A stretch of 64,000 bases of DNA from Dehalococcoidia bacterium (GCA_022822855.1 JAJDYG010000040.1:159905-223904); one strand, 5' to 3'; counted from the first letter of the stretch, positions 8,084-27,320 are shown. The notes: generated from the letters alone by a model not told the origin. Numbers and translations are program-made.

Positions 8084-9058
8084 ATGGCTTCCATCCTCGT
8101 AATCGGCGAAACCGACGACGCCGGCCTGACCGCCCCCACCCTCGAGTTGCTCGGCGCAGCCTCACGCCTCAGCGCCGACCTGGGCGGCGGCGTCGCCCTT
8201 GCACTGATTGGCTCGGGCCTCGCCGACGCCGCTGCCGCAGCCGGACCCGCCGGCGCCGACTCCGTCTACACCGCCGACGCCGACTCACTCGCCTCCTACC
8301 AGACCGACAGCTATCTGCCGGTCGCGCAAGGCATCGTTGAGCGGGACTCACCCTCTGTCGTGCTGATGTCGCAGTCCAGCATGGGCCGCGACCTCGCGCC
8401 GCGCCTGGCAACAAGACTCGGCTCCGCGGCGATCATGGACTCGCTCGGGCTCGAAGTCGACGGCGACCGGATCAAGGCCACGCGGAGTTGCTACGGCGGC
8501 AACGCGCGGCAGGTCGTGACCGTCCAGACTGACCCCCAGGTAATCACCGTCCGACCAAAGTCTCAGGACCCGCTCGAAGCCGACAGCTCCCGCTCGGCCG
8601 AGGTGATCTCTGTCGATGTTGCGGAACCCACGCTCCGCGCTCGCACAACAGGCAAGGAACAGGCAGAGGCCGACGGGATCCGCCTCGAAGACGCTGAGAT
8701 CGTCGTTTCAGGCGGTCGCGGTCTGGGCGGACCGGAAGCCTTCTCGGACCTCGAGCGCCTCGCCGGCGTGCTGACCGCCGCCGTCGGTTCATCGCGGGCC
8801 GCATGCGACCTCGGCTGGTACCCGCCCTCGCAGCAGGTCGGACTGACCGGAACGGTCGTCTCGCCCACGCTTTACGTGGCGATCGCCATTTCGGGCGCCA
8901 GCCAGCACATGGCAGGCTGTGGCGGCTCGAAGAACATCGTCGCGATCAACAAGGACCCCGACGCCCCAATCTTCAGCTTCTCCCGCTTCGGCATCGTCGA
9001 CGACTATAAGAAGGTCCTCCCGGCCCTCGAGTCCGCCTTCGCCGAGGCGCTCGATTAG
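8084..9058 (+). CDS. etfA: Electron transfer flavoprotein alpha subunit
   Basis: [50 protein letters not shown] motifs. Confidence 0.95.
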
Positions 9059-9090
9059 GGCGGATCCCGCAGGCGCAACAGGCAGATCCA

Positions 9091-9118
9091 ACAAGGGCGC
9101 CCCGCGGGGCGCCCTTGT
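9091..9118. terminator. Perfect 28-bp palindrome between convergent genes (bidirectional terminator or REP)
   Basis: ACAAGGGCGCCCCGCGGGGCGCCCTTGT is its own reverse complement. Confidence 0.6.
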
Positions 9119-9151
9119 CATTGAGGCTTTTGGGCGTGGGGAAAGCGGAAC

Positions 9152-9688
9152 CTAGACGCCCTGCGTCTTGCGCCAGGTCCGGATTTGGCCGGCGTGTTCC
9201 ATGTCGTGTTCGATCAGGCCGTCGACCAACTCGTTCACCGAGATCTGCGTCTCATCTACGGTCAGCGATTTCTGCTCACGCTCTTCGTCGGTCAGACGGC
9301 TGACCCGGGCTGCCATCGTGTCCCGGATCGTGCGCAACATGTTGAGCAACTCGTCGATCGGCCGTTCAGCCCAGTCTCCCGGCGCTGCGTCGTTGATCTC
9401 GCGCTCTGTGGGGAACGGGCCGACGGGCATGTTCGCCGCCGAGCGCTCCAGCGCGTTCACCGCCCAGGCGTCCCAGCCGACCAGGTGCGCCAGACAGTCT
9501 CGGACGCTCCACGTTCCGACGACATCGGGGATATCGAACGCCTCCGCCTTCAGCCCCTCAACTGCTTCCAGCAGACAGCTACGCTCATCTGTGCAGTCGA
9601 AGGTGTCGGACTTGACATCTTCCGGCTGGTGTGCAGCGACCATCGATTGCTCCCGAGATGCTCTCCGAGGCCGCAACGTCTGTGACAT
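9152..9688 (-). CDS. DinB / maleylpyruvate isomerase N-terminal family protein (start may be 9643)
   Basis: WSVRDCLAHL...EHDMEHAGQI His motif. Confidence 0.85.
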   Translation of the reverse strand: MSQTLRPRRASREQSMVAAHQPEDVKSDTFDCTDERSCLLEAVEGLKAEAFDIPDVVGTWSVRDCLAHLVGWDAWAVNALERSAANMPVGPFPTEREINDAAPGDWAERPIDELLNMLRTIRDTMAARVSRLTDEEREQKSLTVDETQISVNELVDGLIEHDMEHAGQIRTWRKTQGV

Positions 9689-9902
9689 TCGGAGGACGCG
9701 GTGGATACCGGGGATGCCGCGCGCAGCGCCTCGACATCTCCGCGTATCGCAAAACGGAAGCCGACGGATATCTCAACCGGCTTCCGCAGAATCGTCAACT
9801 GGTTGTTAACCCTAGCAATCTGGTCAGGGGCGTCCTGCTGACTGTGACACAGTTCGCAGTGACCGGCTCGCGGGCGACCGGCGAGCGACATTTGCGCCTA
9901 AG

Positions 9903-9931
9903 TTGACCACTCCCAGCCCCGCCAATAGCCT
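9903..9931 (+). promoter_or_regulatory. Sigma70-type promoter for the coaE leader/operon
   Basis: TTGACC-17 nt-TAGCCT. Confidence 0.6.
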
Positions 9932-9939
9932 GAGGTCTC

Positions 9940-10055
9940 AGCGTGCGTCCGCGTGGCTGGTTGCCTGGGTGTCTGTCCTCGGCCTGAACGAGGACCGGAT
10001 TGAGGCAGTTGGTTAGAGGCGGCTGGACGACGCCAAGCTGCGGGGACGCGGACCG
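9940..10055 (+). ncRNA. Candidate structured 5' leader (three-way junction) upstream of coaE
   Basis: GTCCGCGT (9947-9954) pairs with ACGCGGAC (10046-10053); internal GTCCTCG/CGAGGAC hairpin; GCGGCT/AGCTGC hairpin; many G-U pairs that work only on the + strand. No known family recognised. Confidence 0.4.
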
Positions 10056-10058
10056 ACT

Positions 10059-10655
10059 ATGCGCTCGATTGGACTTACCGGCGGGATTGCCTCAGGCAAG
10101 TCAACCGTCGTCAACCAACTCCGAGGACTCGGCGCGGCCACGATTGACGCCGACCTCCTTGGTCACCAAACCTACGAACCCGGTACAGAGACCTTCAAGC
10201 AGGTCGTCGCCGCCTTCGGTGAGGACCTCGTCGCCGAGGACGGCACGATCGACCGCGCCAAACTCGGCCCCAAGGTCTTTGGCCACCCCGACGGCATGAA
10301 GCGCCTGACCGACATCGTCTGGCCCGGGATTCGTGCCCTGGCCGAAGCGGAGCTCGCCCGCCTCGAAGCGGCCGGCACCGAAGTCGCCGTGCTCGAAGCC
10401 GCTGTCATGATCGAGGCCGGCTGGCAGGATCTGGTCGACGAGGTTTGGGTCGTCGCTGTCAGCCGCGACACGGCCCGCGAGCGCCTCATGGCGCGCAACA
10501 GCTTCTCTGCCGAGGAGGCGGACAAGCGAATCGACTCCCAGATCACCAACGACGAACGACTCAAGCACGCCGATGTCCTGATCTCCAACGACTGCAGCAT
10601 GGAAACGGCCTCCGGGCGCGTCGCGCGAGCCTGGGCCGGAATGCAGTCCGAATAG
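10059..10655 (+). CDS. coaE: Dephospho-CoA kinase
   Basis: IGLTGGIASGKS, IDAD, IDRAKLG, RLMARN...RIDSQ, D.LISND motifs. Confidence 0.95.
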   Translation: MRSIGLTGGIASGKSTVVNQLRGLGAATIDADLLGHQTYEPGTETFKQVVAAFGEDLVAEDGTIDRAKLGPKVFGHPDGMKRLTDIVWPGIRALAEAELARLEAAGTEVAVLEAAVMIEAGWQDLVDEVWVVAVSRDTARERLMARNSFSAEEADKRIDSQITNDERLKHADVLISNDCSMETASGRVARAWAGMQSE

Positions 10656-10738
10656 CATCGACCACTGGGCCTACACAAAGGAACAGCACCTGAGCACACA
10701 CTCGCCGCTGATGATGCGGCAGAGCGGGAGAGCGTTTG

Positions 10739-11635
10739 ATGACCACTGCCACCGATCCGATCACCGAGTATCGCAGCTGGGCTGTTGAGGAATTCCGAGC
10801 AGAAGAAGAGCCGTACTACGTGCCCGTCTCGGATGAAGTCGAAGTCTTCGAGGCCGCCTGGAACAACAAAATTCCAGTGCTGCTCAAGGGACCGACCGGT
10901 TGCGGCAAGACCCGGTTCGTTGAGTACATGGCCTACCACCTCAACCGCCCGCTCGCTGTCGTCCGCGATGGCAAGGCGGAGGTCGAGTCCGAGTCCAACC
11001 TGCCGCTCGTCACCGTCGCCTGCCACGAAGACTTGACCGCCTCCGACCTCGTCGGCCGCTACCTGCTCGAAGGCAACGAAACCGTCTGGATCGACGGCCC
11101 CCTCACCCGCGCCGTCAAGGCCGGAGCCATCTGCTACCTCGATGAGGTTGTCGAAGCCCGCAAGGACACCACGGTCCTCATCCACCCGCTCACCGACCAC
11201 CGCCGCATCCTGCCCGTCGAGAAGAAGTCGCAGCTCCTCCAGGCTCGCGACGGCTTCCTCCTCGTCATCTCCTTCAACCCCGGCTACCAGTCGGCGCTCA
11301 AGGACCTCAAGCAATCGACCCGCCAACGCTTCGTCGCCGTGGAATTCGACTACCCGCCCCGCGAAACAGAGGCCGAGATCGTCCAGCACGAAGCTGAGTG
11401 CTCCTACGAAGTCGCCTTGAACCTCGCCAAGATGGCCGAGAAGATCCGCAACCTGCGCGAACACGGCCTCGCCGAGGGCGCGTCCACACGCCTCCTGATC
11501 TACGCCGGTCGCATGATTGCCGCCGGCGTCTCTCCGCGCCGCGCCTGCCAGGTGGCCATCGTCTGGCCACTCACCGACGACGGTGAAGTCCAGCGCTCGA
11601 TCGAGGAAGTCGTTTCCTCGATCTTCGAGGACTAG
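10739..11635 (+). CDS. CbbQ/NirQ/NorQ-family MoxR-type AAA+ ATPase
   Basis: [54 protein letters not shown] motifs. Confidence 0.93.
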
Positions 11636-11653
11636 GACCGGACCCGGCTTCCA

Positions 11654-12226
11654 GTGCGGATCGGCATCGTCTCGGACATCCACTGCAACGCAGCCGCCCT
11701 TGATCGCGCCATCGAGCAGATGGGTGACATCGACGAACTGCTCTGCGCCGGTGATGCCTGCTATCAGTACCGCTTCTCCAACGATGTCGCCGAGCGGCTC
11801 AAGCAGCTCGGCGGTCGCTATGTGCTCGGCAATCACGAAGAGATCCTGCTTTCCGAGGCCGGCGCCCGCGCCCAGGCCTCGCCCAGCGTGGATCGCTCGC
11901 TGCTCGAGTGGACGCGCGAGCAACCGCACCTGATTCGCACCGACATCGGCTCGAAGAAGCTTCTCATGTTCCACGCGACGCCCTGGGCGCCGTACCGCGA
12001 CTACCTGTTCCCGCACGACCCGCAGCTACAGCGGCTCGCCGAGGAAGAGGCCGACTTCATCATCTACGGGCACACGCATGCGCCGTTGGTCAAGCGGATA
12101 GACCGGGCGCTGATCATCAACCCCGGTTCGGCCGGGGAGATGCGCGGGACCGAGCAGGTCCTGACCTATGCTGTGCTGGATACGTCCGACGATCACGCCG
12201 AGATCGAACAGATTCGGTTTGACTGA
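11654..12226 (+). CDS. Metallophosphoesterase (YfcE/calcineurin-like)
   Basis: DIH, GD, GNHE, H, GHTH, NPGS motifs. Confidence 0.9.
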   Translation: MRIGIVSDIHCNAAALDRAIEQMGDIDELLCAGDACYQYRFSNDVAERLKQLGGRYVLGNHEEILLSEAGARAQASPSVDRSLLEWTREQPHLIRTDIGSKKLLMFHATPWAPYRDYLFPHDPQLQRLAEEEADFIIYGHTHAPLVKRIDRALIINPGSAGEMRGTEQVLTYAVLDTSDDHAEIEQIRFD

Positions 12227-12292
12227 CCGTGAGCCCCACAACGGCTGCCCGTTGCCAGTGAGCTATCGGGGGGCCGGCTTGGATAGACGCCC

Positions 12293-15200
12293 ATGACCGA
12301 CACCCACTCCAACCCGCTCGTCGAAGAGGCACGCGAGGGACTGCGCCAGTTCCCGCCTGCGCTGGCTCAGGAATTCGAGGCCGCGCTCGACGCCGTGGTG
12401 CCCGTCCTCGAGCCGGACGAGCTCGCTCAATGGCTGCGTGATGGCCTGGACATCGCCCGGCACTCGCTGCGTAGCTGGGAAGCGTCCTCCGAGTATTTCC
12501 GAGCCTCGGGGCCGGTCCTCGAGCAGATCACCTACGACCGCATGCGCGAGTGGTGCGCCGTCGGCATCGAGCTGATGGAAACGTCTCCGGCGCTCTCCGG
12601 CGCACTCTTCCGCGCCTCTCCGGCCGTGCTGCCGCATCTCTCCGTGCCTCAAGCCAACGATTGGGCAGCCCAGGGCAAGTCGCTCTACAAAGGGACGTGG
12701 AAGTCTGGCTCGCTCTCGGCCCAGTATTTCGACGTCTCGCCGCAGATTCTTCCCCACCTTCCGCTCTCACAGATGCGGCTCCTGGTCGACCTGATCGACT
12801 CACTCGCTTCGCACTCCTACGAGCTCGCCTCAGCCTGCCTCGGCATGGCGCCCGGCGTGCTCTCCCAGCTTGACCGCTCCGACCGCGCTCCGTTCCTCGA
12901 GTTCGGAGGCATCGTTGCGCACACCGCCTGGGTCGACGCCCGCGTCTACTTCGAGCGCGGACCCGGAGCTCTGCGACAGGTCTCCGAGGAGCAGCGACCG
13001 CGCTACCTCTCCCTCGCCGGACAGGTGGCGATGCAGGTCGGAAGACTCGGCCACCCTTACTTCATCGAGGCCGCTCAGGCCTTCTCCGAAGTCGACAAGG
13101 ACATCCACGAGGGACTGCTGGAGCTGGCCGAGCAGCTCTCCCAACACTCCGGCGATGCTGCCATGGAGTTCATCAAGTCCTCGCCTCGCGTCGCGCAACG
13201 CCTCGGCATCGACGACATTGCCCGCTGGCAGGAGTTCGGACTGAACATCCTCCAGCAGTCTCGCGACGGCGGCGAAGCCTTCTTCCGGCTCGAGTCCGCC
13301 CGCGGCGAAGAGGTCATGGAAGCGCTCAGCAGCCGCGTTGACCTCGACCGCGTCTCCGAGTTGATTCGCATGTATTGCAAGGCCCTGACCGGCGTCGACG
13401 TCGGCGTCAAGGCCTCCGAGGAATTGACTGCCAAGGGCGTCGGCTGGGTCGACGAAAGCAGCCCCACGACCGAGGGCACCACGATCTATCTGCCCGAAAA
13501 CGTCGAGCGCTACCCGACCAAGGACGAAAACTTCGCGGTCTACAAGGTCTTCGCCACCCACCAGGCCGGCCGACTGGAATTCGGCTCCTTCGAGTACCAG
13601 TCCGAGATCAACCCGAAACTCTTCCCTGGCGACCAGAACGGCACGCGCAACGGCCACGGAGGCAGTTCCGGCAACGGCGTCGCTCCTGCGGTGGTCGAAG
13701 CCGAAGAGGGCGAGATCCACACCGACATGGAGCGCTTCTTCGACCAGTTCGGCGACCGCCGCCTCGCCCACGATCTGTTCACCATCGTCGAGGACACCCG
13801 GATCGACACGATCGTCAAGCGCGAGTACGCCGGGGTGCGGCGCGCCTTCTCGCGACTCCAGCAGGCTGCCATCGACCGCCGTCGGCCGGTCGAGGACATG
13901 CCCGCCCGCCAGGCGATGGTTGAGAACCTGCTGCGTGCGTCGCTGGACGAGATCGGCCGGATCCGCTGGCCCAACGAACTAGCCGAAGAAATGCGCGCGC
14001 CGCTGCGCATCCTCAACCGAATTCGGCAGGATGGCGCGACCGTCCAGGACAGCGCCGCCGCAACGGCCCTGCTCTACGAATGGCTCTCGCAGATCCCCAA
14101 CGTCGAACTCGACACCGAGGACTGGTCCGACTTCGAGCAGGAAATGTCCGGCGACCCCGACTCGGGCGAAGACTCGGACATGATGCCGGGCTCCGGATCG
14201 TCCGGTCTCGAAGAGTCGTTCATGCCCTTCATGCCCGGCTCCGAGGAACAGCCCTACGACAGTCCCGACCCCGTCGACTTCCGCGGCGATTTCAAGCCCG
14301 AGCTCGTCCAGTTGCTGATGAAGCTCAAGGGCGAGACCGGCACCGGCGACGCGCCGCCGATCCCGTTGACCAAGGAACAGCTCCAGGAACTGCTGGAGAA
14401 ATCGGTTGAGATCTCGATCAACGAGCTGATGGACATGGACTTGGCCGAGTCCTCAGGCATGTTCCTCGACAACCTGCTCAAGGAAGTCAACCAGATCCAG
14501 GGCGAGCGCCAGGAAGGCCAACAGGCCATGGGCGACGACTCGACCGGAGCCGAGGACGGCGAGGAGCTGCCCGTCGAGGCGGCCTCGTTCTACTACGACG
14601 AGTGGGATTTCCGCGCCGCCGACTACAAGCCCCGCTGGTGCCGGGTGCAGGAACAGCGCGGCGAGTCGGGCACGGCCAGCTACTACGCCGAGACCCTGCA
14701 CGAACACACCCAGCTCGTCCAGGAAACGCGCAAGCAGTTCGAGATGCTGCGCCCGGAAATGTTCCGCAAGATGAAGCGCCTGACCGATGGCGAGGACTAC
14801 GACCTCGACGCCGTGATCGAGTGGTACACCGAGAAGATCGCCGGCGGCGCCTCGGAGACCAAGCTCTTCTACCGGCGCAACAAGGTCGAGCGCGACGTCG
14901 CAGTGGCCTTCCTGCTCGACGTCTCCGCCTCAACCGACGAGGAAATCCAGAAACACCACGATCAGCGCCAGGACGACCAGTTCGACGACGACCCCCGCAA
15001 GTACCTGAGCTGGTGGGCCCAGCGTCGCGCCGAGGCCGCACGGCACCCGGGCAAGCGAATCATCGACCTCGAGAAAGAGGCGACCGTCCTCCTGATCGAG
15101 GCCCTGGAGACGATCGGCGACAAGTACGGCGTCTACGGCTTCTCCGGCTACGGCCGCGACAACGTCGAGTTTTTCGTCTACAAGGACATGGACGAGCCCT

Positions 15201-15580
15201 TCGGCGACCGGATCAAGGAGCGCATCGACAAGATCGCGCCGGTCCGCTCAACCCGCATGGGTCCGGCAATCCGGCATTGCATCTGGAAGCTGCAGAACAC
15301 CGACGCCAAGGTCAAGATCCTGATGCTGCTCTCCGACGGTCGGCCGCAGGACCATGGCTACGGCCGCGACCGGACCGAGAAGGAATACGCGATCCACGAC
15401 ACCAAGATGGCGCTGACCGAGGCGCGCCGCGAGGGCATGGTCCCGTTCGCGCTAACCGTCGACCGCGCCGGGCACGACTATCTCAAGCAGATGTGCCAGG
15501 ACATGGCCTACGAGGTCGTCGCCGACATCGAGTCCCTCCCCCGCCGCCTGCCCGCCCTCTACCGCCGCCTCACCGGCTAG
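12293..15580 (+). CDS. NorD/CbbO-like VWA-domain protein (1095 aa) with N-terminal 37-aa helical repeats
   Basis: C-terminal MIDAS (LLDVSAS, STRMG, LSDGRPQD); YDEWD..A.DY motif typical of NorD/CbbO; in operon with the CbbQ-type ATPase. Confidence 0.88.
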   Translation: MTDTHSNPLVEEAREGLRQFPPALAQEFEAALDAVVPVLEPDELAQWLRDGLDIARHSLRSWEASSEYFRASGPVLEQITYDRMREWCAVGIELMETSPALSGALFRASPAVLPHLSVPQANDWAAQGKSLYKGTWKSGSLSAQYFDVSPQILPHLPLSQMRLLVDLIDSLASHSYELASACLGMAPGVLSQLDRSDRAPFLEFGGIVAHTAWVDARVYFERGPGALRQVSEEQRPRYLSLAGQVAMQVGRLGHPYFIEAAQAFSEVDKDIHEGLLELAEQLSQHSGDAAMEFIKSSPRVAQRLGIDDIARWQEFGLNILQQSRDGGEAFFRLESARGEEVMEALSSRVDLDRVSELIRMYCKALTGVDVGVKASEELTAKGVGWVDESSPTTEGTTIYLPENVERYPTKDENFAVYKVFATHQAGRLEFGSFEYQSEINPKLFPGDQNGTRNGHGGSSGNGVAPAVVEAEEGEIHTDMERFFDQFGDRRLAHDLFTIVEDTRIDTIVKREYAGVRRAFSRLQQAAIDRRRPVEDMPARQAMVENLLRASLDEIGRIRWPNELAEEMRAPLRILNRIRQDGATVQDSAAATALLYEWLSQIPNVELDTEDWSDFEQEMSGDPDSGEDSDMMPGSGSSGLEESFMPFMPGSEEQPYDSPDPVDFRGDFKPELVQLLMKLKGETGTGDAPPIPLTKEQLQELLEKSVEISINELMDMDLAESSGMFLDNLLKEVNQIQGERQEGQQAMGDDSTGAEDGEELPVEAASFYYDEWDFRAADYKPRWCRVQEQRGESGTASYYAETLHEHTQLVQETRKQFEMLRPEMFRKMKRLTDGEDYDLDAVIEWYTEKIAGGASETKLFYRRNKVERDVAVAFLLDVSASTDEEIQKHHDQRQDDQFDDDPRKYLSWWAQRRAEAARHPGKRIIDLEKEATVLLIEALETIGDKYGVYGFSGYGRDNVEFFVYKDMDEPFGDRIKERIDKIAPVRSTRMGPAIRHCIWKLQNTDAKVKILMLLSDGRPQDHGYGRDRTEKEYAIHDTKMALTEARREGMVPFALTVDRAGHDYLKQMCQDMAYEVVADIESLPRRLPALYRRLTG

Positions 15581-25625: not shown

Positions 25626-27320
25626 ATGACCTCGCAAGACCACCCCAATAACAACCTCCGCGAACGATCCAGCGTCCTCGTCGACGGCCCCAACCGCGCC
25701 GCCGCACGCTCACAGCTCTACTCCGTCGGCTACGACGACGAAGCCCTCTCCAAACCCCTGGTCATGGTTGCCCACAACTGGATCGGCACCATGCCCTGCA
25801 ACTTCTCCCACCGCGAACTCGCCCAGGACGTCATGCGCGGCATCCGCGAGGCTGGCGGCACTCCGATGGAGGTCAATACCGTCTCCATCTCCGACGGCAT
25901 CACCATGGGCACCGAGGGCATGAAAGCTTCGCTCATCTCCCGCGAGATCATCACCGACTCGATCGAACTCTGCGCCGTCGGCTACGCCTTCGACGCCGCC
26001 GTCGTCATCTGCGGCTGCGACAAGACCATCCCCGCCGCCGCCATGGCCATGGCCCGGATCAACATCCCCTCGGTCGCGCTCTACTCCGGCTCCATCGCCC
26101 CCGGACGCCACCACGACGGCCGCGACCTCACCATCCAGGACGTCTTCGAGGCCGTCGGCCAGCACTCCGCCGGCACGATCGACGACGACGAACTCCACCA
26201 GGTCGCCCTAAACGCCTGCCCCGGCGCTGGGGCCTGCGGCGCCCAATACACCGCCAACACCATGGCCACCACGCTCGAGTTCCTCGGCCTCTCGCCGATG
26301 GGCTCGGCCACCGTCGGCGCCACCGACCCGCGCAAACACAACGTCGGCGAAGCCGCCGGACAGCTCGTCATGGACGTCCTTCGCCGCGGCGTCATGCCCC
26401 GCGACATCCTCACCCGCGAAGCGTTCGAGAACGGCATCGCCTGCGCCGCCTCCACCGGCGGCTCGACCAACGTCGTCCTGCACCTCCTCGCCCTCGCCCG
26501 CGAGGCCGGCGTCGAGCTCAGCATCGACGATTTCGATGAGATCTCGGAACGCACCCCGTTGATCGGGGACCTTCGCCCCGGCGGACGCTACGTCGCTCTC
26601 GACATGGACCGTGCCGGCGGCACGCCGCTGCTGGCCAAACGCCTGCTCGAAGGCGGCAAGCTCCACGGCGACGCGCAGACTGTCACCGGGCAGACCATCG
26701 CCGAAGCAGCCGCCGACGCGCAGGAGACGCCCGGCCAGGACGTCATCCTGCCCGTCGACCAGGCCCTCAAGGACACCGGCGGACTCGTCATCCTCAAGGG
26801 CTCGCTCGCTCCGGACGGCTGCGTCGTCAAGGTCGCCGGTTACGAGCGCCAGCTCCAGACCGGCCCCGCCCGCGTCTTCGAACGCGAGGAAGACGCCATG
26901 GACGCTGTTACCCACAACCGGATCAACGCCGGCGATATCGTCGTCATCCGCTACGAGGGTCCCAAGGGAGGCCCGGGCATGCGCGAGATGCTCGGAGTCA
27001 CCGCCGCCATCGTCGGAGCAGGCCTCGGAGAATCCGTCGCCCTGCTCACCGACGGCCGCTTCAGCGGAGCCACCCGAGGCCTCATGGCCGGCCACGTCGC
27101 CCCCGAGGCTTACGTCGGAGGCCCCATCGCCCTCGTCGAAGAGGGAGACCAGATCACCCTCGACATCGCCAACCGCCAACTCAACCTCGACGTCGACGAA
27201 GCCGAGCTCGCCCGCCGCCGAGCCAACTGGCAACCGCCCGCCCCCAACTACGCCAACGGAGTCTTCGCCAAGTACGCCACCCTCGTCTCTGGAGCCGAGC
27301 GCGGCGCAGTCACAAGCTAG
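25626..27320 (+). CDS. ilvD: Dihydroxy-acid dehydratase
   Basis: [48 protein letters not shown] motifs. Confidence 0.96.

Follow-up and report, generated by a model that had tools for sequence, protein, structure and literature searches.

The question raised by the coaE locus of a Dehalococcoidia bacterium is whether the nucleotides (nt) ahead of this gene, which encodes dephospho-coenzyme A kinase, form a regulatory RNA and, if so, how such an RNA would act. The locus lies in a 64,000-nt stretch of DNA (GCA_022822855.1, JAJDYG010000040.1:159905-223904), called the window from here on, and a first-pass annotation of its sequence had proposed a promoter-driven structured leader as a candidate new riboswitch. 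The answer from comparison with relatives is graded: the structured leader with its conserved promoter is genuine and was previously undescribed; its status as a riboswitch is that of a candidate, reasonable but unproven; and the link to coenzyme A (CoA) is speculation, guilt by association from the neighbouring gene. The reading preferred here, to which we give about an even chance, is that of a cis-acting, clade-specific translational leader of ~120 nt, in which a helix between a 5′-terminal anti-Shine-Dalgarno (anti-SD) segment and the Shine-Dalgarno (SD) strand of coaE would compete with an internal mimic of that strand.

The material for the comparison came from a scan with the CoaE protein, with one genome per species, which returned 60 loci, all from metagenome-assembled genomes of Dehalococcoidia/Chloroflexota and many of them from sponges; the sequencing runs that contain the window itself are sponge and marine metagenomes. 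Intergenic DNA was alignable to the window in 37 related Dehalococcoidia loci of the clade with ~88-96% CoaE identity, referred to below as the close loci, and several identity values were taken from a core set of 28 sequences.

Promoter and Conserved Blocks

Regarding the promoter, the TTGACC-17-TAGCCT arrangement read by the first-pass annotation was borne out by near-invariant hexamers across the 37 loci, with a scrambled spacer between them (Table 1). The −35/−10 spacing of 17 nt is fixed in every locus, and the mean pairwise identity is 0.41 in the 20 nt before the −35, 0.47 over the 15 variable spacer positions, and 0.46-0.50 in the 7 nt after the −10. A scanner based on the Escherichia coli consensus calls no promoter in 9000-11000, because the −10 matches only three of the six consensus positions; by the conservation criterion this sigma-70-type promoter is real, though its −10 is poor by E. 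coli standards.

Neutral sites are near saturation, so that the frozen promoter hexamers and a few equally frozen RNA blocks stand out, a pattern of conservation that is the strongest evidence for the element. Outside the closing helix, P1, ~40 nt have an identity of 0.73-0.79 in the 28 core sequences, compared with ~0.45 for neutral positions: these are the base of a hairpin, P2, the UUAGA junction, and GGCGG.UGGACGACGCC. Across the rest of the leader, identity is 0.56-0.79 in the P2 stem strands, reaches its lowest value at the P2 tip, and is 0.47-0.54 in 9 nt (10050-10058) of the 12 that separate the P1 3′ strand from the AUG.

Table 1. Coordinates of the coaE leader and its flanking genes in the window
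Feature	Position	Strand	Remarks
−35 hexamer TTGACC	9903..9908	+	identical in 37/37 close loci; pairwise identity 1.00
−10 region AATAGCCT	9924..9931	+	pairwise identity 0.95; hexamer TAGCCT at 9926-9931
Predicted transcription start	9939..9939	+	placed by homology to L004:2917
5′-terminal block CAGCGTGCGTCCGCGTGG	9939..9956	+	anti-SD strand; GCGU three times; most conserved RNA segment, identity 0.90-0.95
P1 5′ strand, conserved register	9941..9953	+	RNAalifold consensus; 95.7% of alignment cells paired
P2 base, 5′ strand CTGGTTGCCT	9957..9966	+	88% of cells paired; three pairs changed on both sides
P2 distal extension (tip)	9967..10002	+	cap GTCCTCG (9975-9981)/CGAGGAC (9989-9995); insert of variable length, identity 0.15
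P2 base, 3′ strand AGGCAGTTGG	10003..10012	+	partner of 9957-9966
Conserved junction TTAGA (UUAGA)	10013..10017	+	identity 0.53-0.77; 0.77 in the 28 core sequences
Internal block GGCGGCTGGACGACGCC (mimic)	10018..10034	+	consensus GGCGGCUGGACGACGCC; near-copy of the SD strand; also weak hairpin GGCG/CGCC; identity 0.70-0.77
P1 3′ strand TGCGGGGACGC	10039..10049	+	consensus UGCGGGGACGC; contains the SD GGGGA (10042-10046); identity 0.86-0.93
DinB-family gene	leftward from 9688	−	divergent from coaE
coaE (dephospho-CoA kinase)	10059..10655	+	Pfam CoaE, 3.7e-48; first gene of the coaE / cbbQ-like AAA+ / metallophosphoesterase / VWA run

Pairing of the 5′ End with the Shine-Dalgarno Strand

The two best-conserved RNA segments, 9939-9956 and 10039-10049, are mutually complementary, and RNAalifold pairs 9941-9953 with 10039-10049 in the register GCGUCCGC(G) with (U)GCGG(GG)ACGC. 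This is P1, and with the SD in its conserved 3′ strand it bears out the earlier proposal of a closing helix that involves the ribosome-binding region, while changing its details. The purine-rich stretch at −13 to −6, which had been taken for the covered ribosome-binding site, gives way to the conserved SD, GGGGA at −17 to −13. As for the 8-bp closing stem of the first-pass annotation, the complement is present, since GTCCGCGT (9947-9954) matches ACGCGGAC (10046-10053) perfectly in the window, but this register is found only there and in a few relatives (L001, L002, and L025), as it needs the window-specific GCGGAC (10048-10053) that most relatives lack.

Changes in P1 preserve the pairing: a compensatory exchange of C-G for U-A occurs at 9950/10042 in L019 and L026, and the G-U pair 9953/10039 becomes A-U in L012 and L037. 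SD-like sequence is present in the leader only in the P1 3′ strand, where the variants of GGGGA are limited to GGAGA and GAGGA, and when 11 leaders of different subtypes were compared, 10 had the best complement of the SD region at their very 5′ terminus. The outer register of P1 is ambiguous, with GCGU repeated three times in the 5′ block and ACGC two or three times on the 3′ side; an extension of the helix by GUGG/CCAC was dropped, having no consistent covariation. The partner of the SD differs from that of RNA thermometers of the ROSE or fourU kind: it is the GC-rich GCGUCCGC, ~90 nt away, with no U run.

Sister leader types support P1 at the level of the whole helix, keeping the pairing of the 5′ end with the SD in different sequences. 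CAGCGCC pairs with GGGGCAGCUG in the L032/L061/L063/L189 type, which has the same promoter, and GCGCC with GG(A)CGC in the L187/L188 type; in L028/L185 the 5′ block is altered to GCGCCUGC, while GCAGGCG is found in the interior and AGGCG close to the SD. Among the 11 leaders compared, the one departure is the L029/L030/L186 type: its 5′ block has GCAUGCACGC as partner, a segment located upstream of the SD.

The Interior of the Leader

P2 is variable in length and sequence toward its tip, which is a 7-nt loop in L004-L008 and L016, where the extension is absent, and a long, perfect hairpin, unrelated from one locus to another, in the window, L013, L021, L024, and L049. Exchanges among G-U, A-U, and G-C are frequent in P2; such wobble exchanges work only on the + strand, so the element makes sense as + strand RNA, and the long G-U-rich arm that the first-pass annotation had described, with G-U pairs valid on that strand only, is confirmed by them. 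Taking P1 and P2 together, 89% of cells are paired, five pairs are changed on both sides, and a covariation score as high as the observed one came up in 8 of 500 shuffles.

The minimum free energy (MFE) fold of 9940-10061 is a three-way junction (−56.4 kcal/mol), so the architecture first proposed stands for the window; it does not extend to the relatives, where the third arm is unconserved and P2 is missing from L026 and L029/L030, which retain the 5′ block. The conserved anatomy is therefore P1 around a variable interior, with no fixed three-way junction. Two candidates for the third arm were rejected. The pairing of GCGGCT (10019-10024) with AGCTGC (10036-10041), the second arm of the earlier fold, is possible in no leaders other than those of the window and the L004 group, breaks down in the ACACAUGC group, and needs 10039-10041, which P1 also uses; the GGCG/CGCC hairpin is paired in 73% of cells, with no consistent covariation. 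A leader peptide or upstream open reading frame was also rejected because of frame-breaking indels: leader lengths (90, 94, 97, 100, 107, 108, 109, 112, 113, and so on) differ by non-multiples of three. Against it also speak the blocks, which are invariant at every codon position, and the lack of an SD before the GUG at 9943.

Regarding the internal block, it is a near-copy of the SD strand (GCGG..GGACG.CGC) and can pair with the 5′ block as well as that strand does, with 94% of cells paired; L026 has a compensatory case, where U-to-C in the 5′ block goes together with A-to-G in the mimic and a U-A pair becomes C-G. In constrained folds the P1 and mimic conformations differ by 1.5 kcal/mol on average, and when leaders are cut off ahead of the SD strand, 29 of 32 (91%) have the mimic as partner of the 5′ block in the MFE fold. 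A 5′ block that needs two partners, one of which is also an SD, would explain why the helices are frozen rather than covarying.

Two leaders, L018 and L020, contain a 14-nt tandem duplication at ~2960-2990, GACGCCACA(G/A)TTGC twice over, which duplicates the junction of mimic and SD strand; it hints at an origin of the mimic itself by duplication of the SD strand.

Transcription of the Leader

RNA data came from 10 sponge metatranscriptome runs and concern the orthologous L004/L094 lineage, which shares the promoter and the blocks and whose P2 is short; the window strain was present in DNA metagenomes alone, the sponge metatranscriptomes containing neither it nor L011, and the fragments of relatives in X10, X15, X18, and X20 did not cover the leader. 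The 5′-most RNA contig of L004, from low-depth assembled data that are not 5′-end-specific, begins at L004:2917, the C of CAGCG located 8 nt after the −10 and equivalent to window position 9939. A contig of 141-231 nt spans the leader and the first 90-160 nt of coaE in 8 of the 10 runs (6 independent), and none of the 10 has an RNA contig over the 290 nt upstream of the start, a stretch that DNA-like runs span unbroken. Over 12 kb of the L004/L094 lineage, four runs hold just 1-3 contigs each, and every run has one on the 240-nt leader/coaE stretch.

The leader is thus co-transcribed with coaE from about the predicted start, and its 5′ part accumulates relative to the remainder of the operon; the data are supportive, not decisive. 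This over-represented 5′ fragment suggests either a nuclease-resistant structure or decay of untranslated message. Within the 12-kb region, no RNA is recovered more consistently than L004:2917-3157 (L094:4527-4767, minus strand), and there is hardly any coverage of cbbQ, the remainder of coaE, or the neighbouring genes.

Terminator-like sites were found on neither strand in 9000-11000, so control by the leader would act on translation or stability. The alternative offered by the first-pass annotation, a stand-alone small RNA ending before coaE, would account for the separate promoter and for the short, abundant 5′ RNA species, but it is barely credible: every RNA contig continues from the leader into coaE, no terminator follows, and the conserved 3′ strand is the SD of coaE itself.

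Distribution and Sister Leaders

The leader matches no known riboswitch, as had been stated at the outset: a covariance-model search of Rfam 15 gave no match at the gathering score in the 64-kb window, none at E ≤ 10 in 9650-10250, and nothing relevant at E ≤ 1 in 10 homologous loci, with 6S, SRP, and the nadA motif included. A covariance model of P1 and P2, named R1, recovered 38 coaE leaders in 464 kb of window and loci; it was absent from the clades with 75% and 53% CoaE identity, and no second gene context was found in these 464 kb. The other R1 hit in the window, at 26598-26674 on the minus strand (13.2 bits, E = 0.71), is partial, covering model positions 14-92, and was treated as chance. 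When metagenomes were searched for the pattern CAGCGTGCGTCCGC...RRGACGC, only L094 was genuine among the matches listed, the rest being chance occurrences in coding DNA of soil metagenomes. As far as these comparisons reach, the element appears confined to the clade in which CoaE identity is at least about 88%, with one gene context known.

In L064 (87% CoaE identity, from a TARA ocean sample) the promoter is shared, and the leader behind it has 42 nt and no structure (L064:85-150). A promoter of the TTGACC-17-(C/A)ATAGCCT type drives at least four other leader versions in close relatives (L064; L032, L061-L063, and L189; L187/L188; L029/L030/L186). The interior of the leader thus turns over fast, with the promoter and the pairing of the 5′ end with the SD mostly persisting.

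In the 75% and 53% clades, leaders are of similar length and different sequence. L035-L048, members of the 75% clade, have another conserved leader in the ~100 nt before coaE, after a TTGCGC/TTGACG-17-GATAGC(C/A)T promoter; it contains a long GC hairpin, UUGGCGC...GCGCGCCAGA, and C(C/U)AGAU occurs three times in the L036/L039/L041 members. Folding of these leaders for the same design gave a different GC hairpin and no clear SD pairing, and they were set aside.

Proposed Mechanism and Alternatives

The mechanism that we propose starts at the sigma-70-type promoter, which yields a coaE operon mRNA with a ~120-nt leader that would regulate in cis. The first ~18 nt would act as the anti-SD: they pair with the strand of the SD, which lies 13-17 nt before the AUG, and the resulting P1, closing over the variable P2, would restrict the access of ribosomes and limit translation. 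The mimic, transcribed before the SD strand, could hold the 5′ block in competition with that strand, in which case the SD would be accessible; how much coaE is translated, and probably how much of the downstream genes too, would then be set by which partner the 5′ block holds. The trigger that sets this balance may be a ligand, a protein, or folding kinetics alone.

Several observations weigh against this proposal. Pairing of the 5′ block persists in 72% of cases when the mimic is shuffled, and the energy gained is only 2.2 kcal/mol. The fold z-score in the window is −1.9 to −2.05 (+ strand −1.89, − strand −1.65), which taken alone is close to chance, and the mean over 30 homologous leaders is only −0.84. 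The SD is predicted to be unpaired with a probability of 0.34, versus 0.41 with the upstream leader shuffled, and significance is reached in no single sequence, which leaves the sequestration of the ribosome-binding site claimed by the first-pass annotation unsupported beyond that of shuffled GC-rich leaders. Being weak, the z-scores, the SD accessibility, and the mimic pairing against shuffles were all rejected as positive evidence; in a GC-rich context energy models cannot separate design from chance, and the case rests on conservation and covariation. Covariation is in turn thin because the paired strands barely vary. Moreover, the L029/L030 type pairs its 5′ block with a segment other than the SD, some relatives keep P1 without P2, at least one relative, L064, does without the element, whose known occurrence is confined to coaE leaders of one narrow clade, and the RNA data, which are assembled at low depth and unstranded, belong to an ortholog and not to the window strain.

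A metabolite riboswitch is one alternative. P1, P2, the junction, and the internal block would make up an aptamer whose ligand, be it CoA, dephospho-CoA, an acyl-CoA, or some other small molecule, would stabilise P1 and shut translation off, as feedback on the last step of CoA synthesis. This would put to use the ~40 conserved nt outside P1, which exceed the needs of an anti-SD helix alone, and it agrees with the multi-stem layout, the SD in the closing helix, the two nearly isoenergetic competing folds, and the position before coaE of an RNA that matches no known family, CoA being among the conspicuously missing ligands (PMC10043782). We nevertheless consider it rather unlikely, given the single gene context and narrow clade, the leaders that keep the 5′ block and SD strand without P2 and the junction (L026, L029/L030), the sister clades that replaced the interior, which is the opposite of what a binding pocket would lead one to expect, and the CbbQ-like AAA+, phosphoesterase, and VWA proteins of the operon, which have no CoA link. 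Its specific form, in which the main-type leader (P1, P2, UUAGA, and the GGCGG.UGGACGACGCC core) is a new aptamer class for CoA, a precursor, or a thioester that represses coaE translation, is very unlikely. Another alternative is control by a protein: an RNA-binding protein, either a GGA binder like CsrA/RsmA or an operon product, would sit on the repeated GGAC(G) and repress translation. CsrA targets usually have two GGA motifs, one over the SD and one in a hairpin loop, and the leader has GGA conserved at 10025-10027 and 10044-10046, the latter overlapping the SD and the former in the loop of the possible GGCG/CGCC hairpin, with a distance of 19 nt that falls within the 10-63 nt of such targets; a protein footprint would also agree with how strongly the primary sequence of the blocks is conserved. 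Likeness to the CsrA consensus ends at GGA, however, the hairpin that would present it is paired in only 73% of cells, and GGC replaces the internal GGA in L010, L011, and L033, all of which makes this a distinctly unlikely explanation.

The leader might instead have no switching function, its 5′ helix protecting the mRNA end and setting a fixed, low level of translation. The over-representation of the leader and the first 90-160 nt of coaE in the RNA runs is what a nuclease-resistant 5′ structure would give, SD occlusion is no stronger than in shuffles, and L064 does without the element; a constitutive structure leaves unexplained, however, the conserved mimic and junction and the near-isoenergetic alternative fold, and a plain protective hairpin could drift, so we regard it as unlikely. 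As for DNA operators, a repressor could bind +1 to +18 and the downstream GGACGC repeats, since the 5′ block lies right at the transcription start, a classic operator position, and motifs resembling GGACGC are repeated, in inverted orientation at 9945-9953 and in direct orientation at 10025-10033 and 10044-10049. This is highly improbable: the G-U exchanges in P2 and at 9953/10039 are sensible only in + strand RNA, the compensatory and whole-helix changes keep complementarity and not motif identity, and the blocks are non-palindromic.

Gene Context

The leader occupies part of a 370-nt divergent intergenic region. The coaE reading frame cannot be extended upstream, and its first codons, ATGCGCTC, are kept in relatives. 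Public CoaE models P0001, P0012, P0013, P0015, and P0025 (219-231 amino acids) exceed the conserved 198-residue protein by 20-33 residues; their starts look as if called within the leader, as mis-annotated N-termini (also in L063), and the leader analysis corrects such database models.

Downstream of coaE lie a CbbQ-like AAA+ gene, a metallophosphoesterase gene, and a gene for a 1095-residue VWA protein, and etfB and etfA are upstream. The order etfA > dinB < coaE > cbbQ is retained in the clades with ~90% and ~75% CoaE identity; the 53% clade lacks dinB, and the coaE-cbbQ linkage persists down to it. In the window (10736-15580) and in all loci, a CbbQ/NorQ-type AAA+ gene always follows coaE, with the metallophosphoesterase next. 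Within the main clade the CbbQ/NorQ-type protein has an identity of 92-99% (a value of 91% comes solely from the cut fragment of L021), which exceeds the conservation of CoaE, and the 1095-residue protein of the window has a C-terminal VWA domain and resembles the CbbO/NorD partner. The leader may be of greater relevance for this MoxR-VWA system than for CoA.

On the other side, 50-110 bp ahead of the coaE −35 (window 9794-9853), there are two conserved blocks: GTCAACTGGTTGTTAACCCTAGCAATCTGGTCAG, which contains the palindrome GTTAAC, and CCTGCTGACTGTGACACAG, which contains the palindrome CTGTG-A-CACAG. The 75% clade has versions of them, GTTAACGCTAGCCAAGC ... GTAGCCTGTGACACA, with TGTGGCACA in L038, L046, and L059. 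The blocks probably belong to the divergent dinB, either as its operator or promoter elements or as its 5′ untranslated region (UTR); in lineage L031, metatranscriptome contig X42 spans a block of this type contiguously with dinB and reaches the coaE −35.

Significance and Comparison with Known Systems

We know of no RNA-based control of CoA biosynthesis, and, to our knowledge, almost no regulatory RNA has been described from sponge-associated Dehalococcoidia; a full-text literature search brought up no account of a riboswitch for CoA or of a leader ahead of coaE. A 2022 review lists CoA among the fundamental nucleotide-like cofactors without a validated riboswitch (PMC10043782). CoA sensing, if true, would give the first natural riboswitch for a cofactor long listed as missing one. 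The candidate is compact, its shortest natural version having 94 nt from the −10 to the AUG (L004), and natural variants act as mutants: L026 and L029 are without P2, L064 is without the leader, and L032 and L187 have swapped helices. Even without a ligand, the work documents a conserved promoter and a leader with long-range anti-SD:SD pairing in uncultivated sponge-associated Dehalococcoidia.

Among the systems that it recalls, the purine and TPP aptamers have a three-way junction, and the predicted fold of the window, with P1 closing two arms, is of this shape; in the coaE leader, by contrast, the third arm is unconserved, and some homologs have only one internal hairpin. CsrA/RsmA leaders share with it two GGA motifs ~19 nt apart, one over the SD and one possibly in a hairpin loop, but here the wider consensus is not matched and the hairpin is weak. 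In the maturation gene of phage MS2, a complement at the 5′ end closes on the SD at equilibrium, and an earlier-forming structure delays the closure, much as proposed for the mimic; the coaE leader differs in belonging to a bacterial chromosomal operon and in that its timing would follow from folds for which shuffled controls already reach 72%. Finally, when compared with the translational OFF riboswitches, such as SAM-III (the S(MK) box), SAM-II, and preQ1-II, the coaE leader stands apart by having no Rfam match, a single gene context, an interior unconserved beyond one clade, and a ligand that is hypothetical; what it has in common with them is the design, namely, a terminator-less 5′ UTR where an anti-SD pairs with the SD and an alternative pairing can free it.

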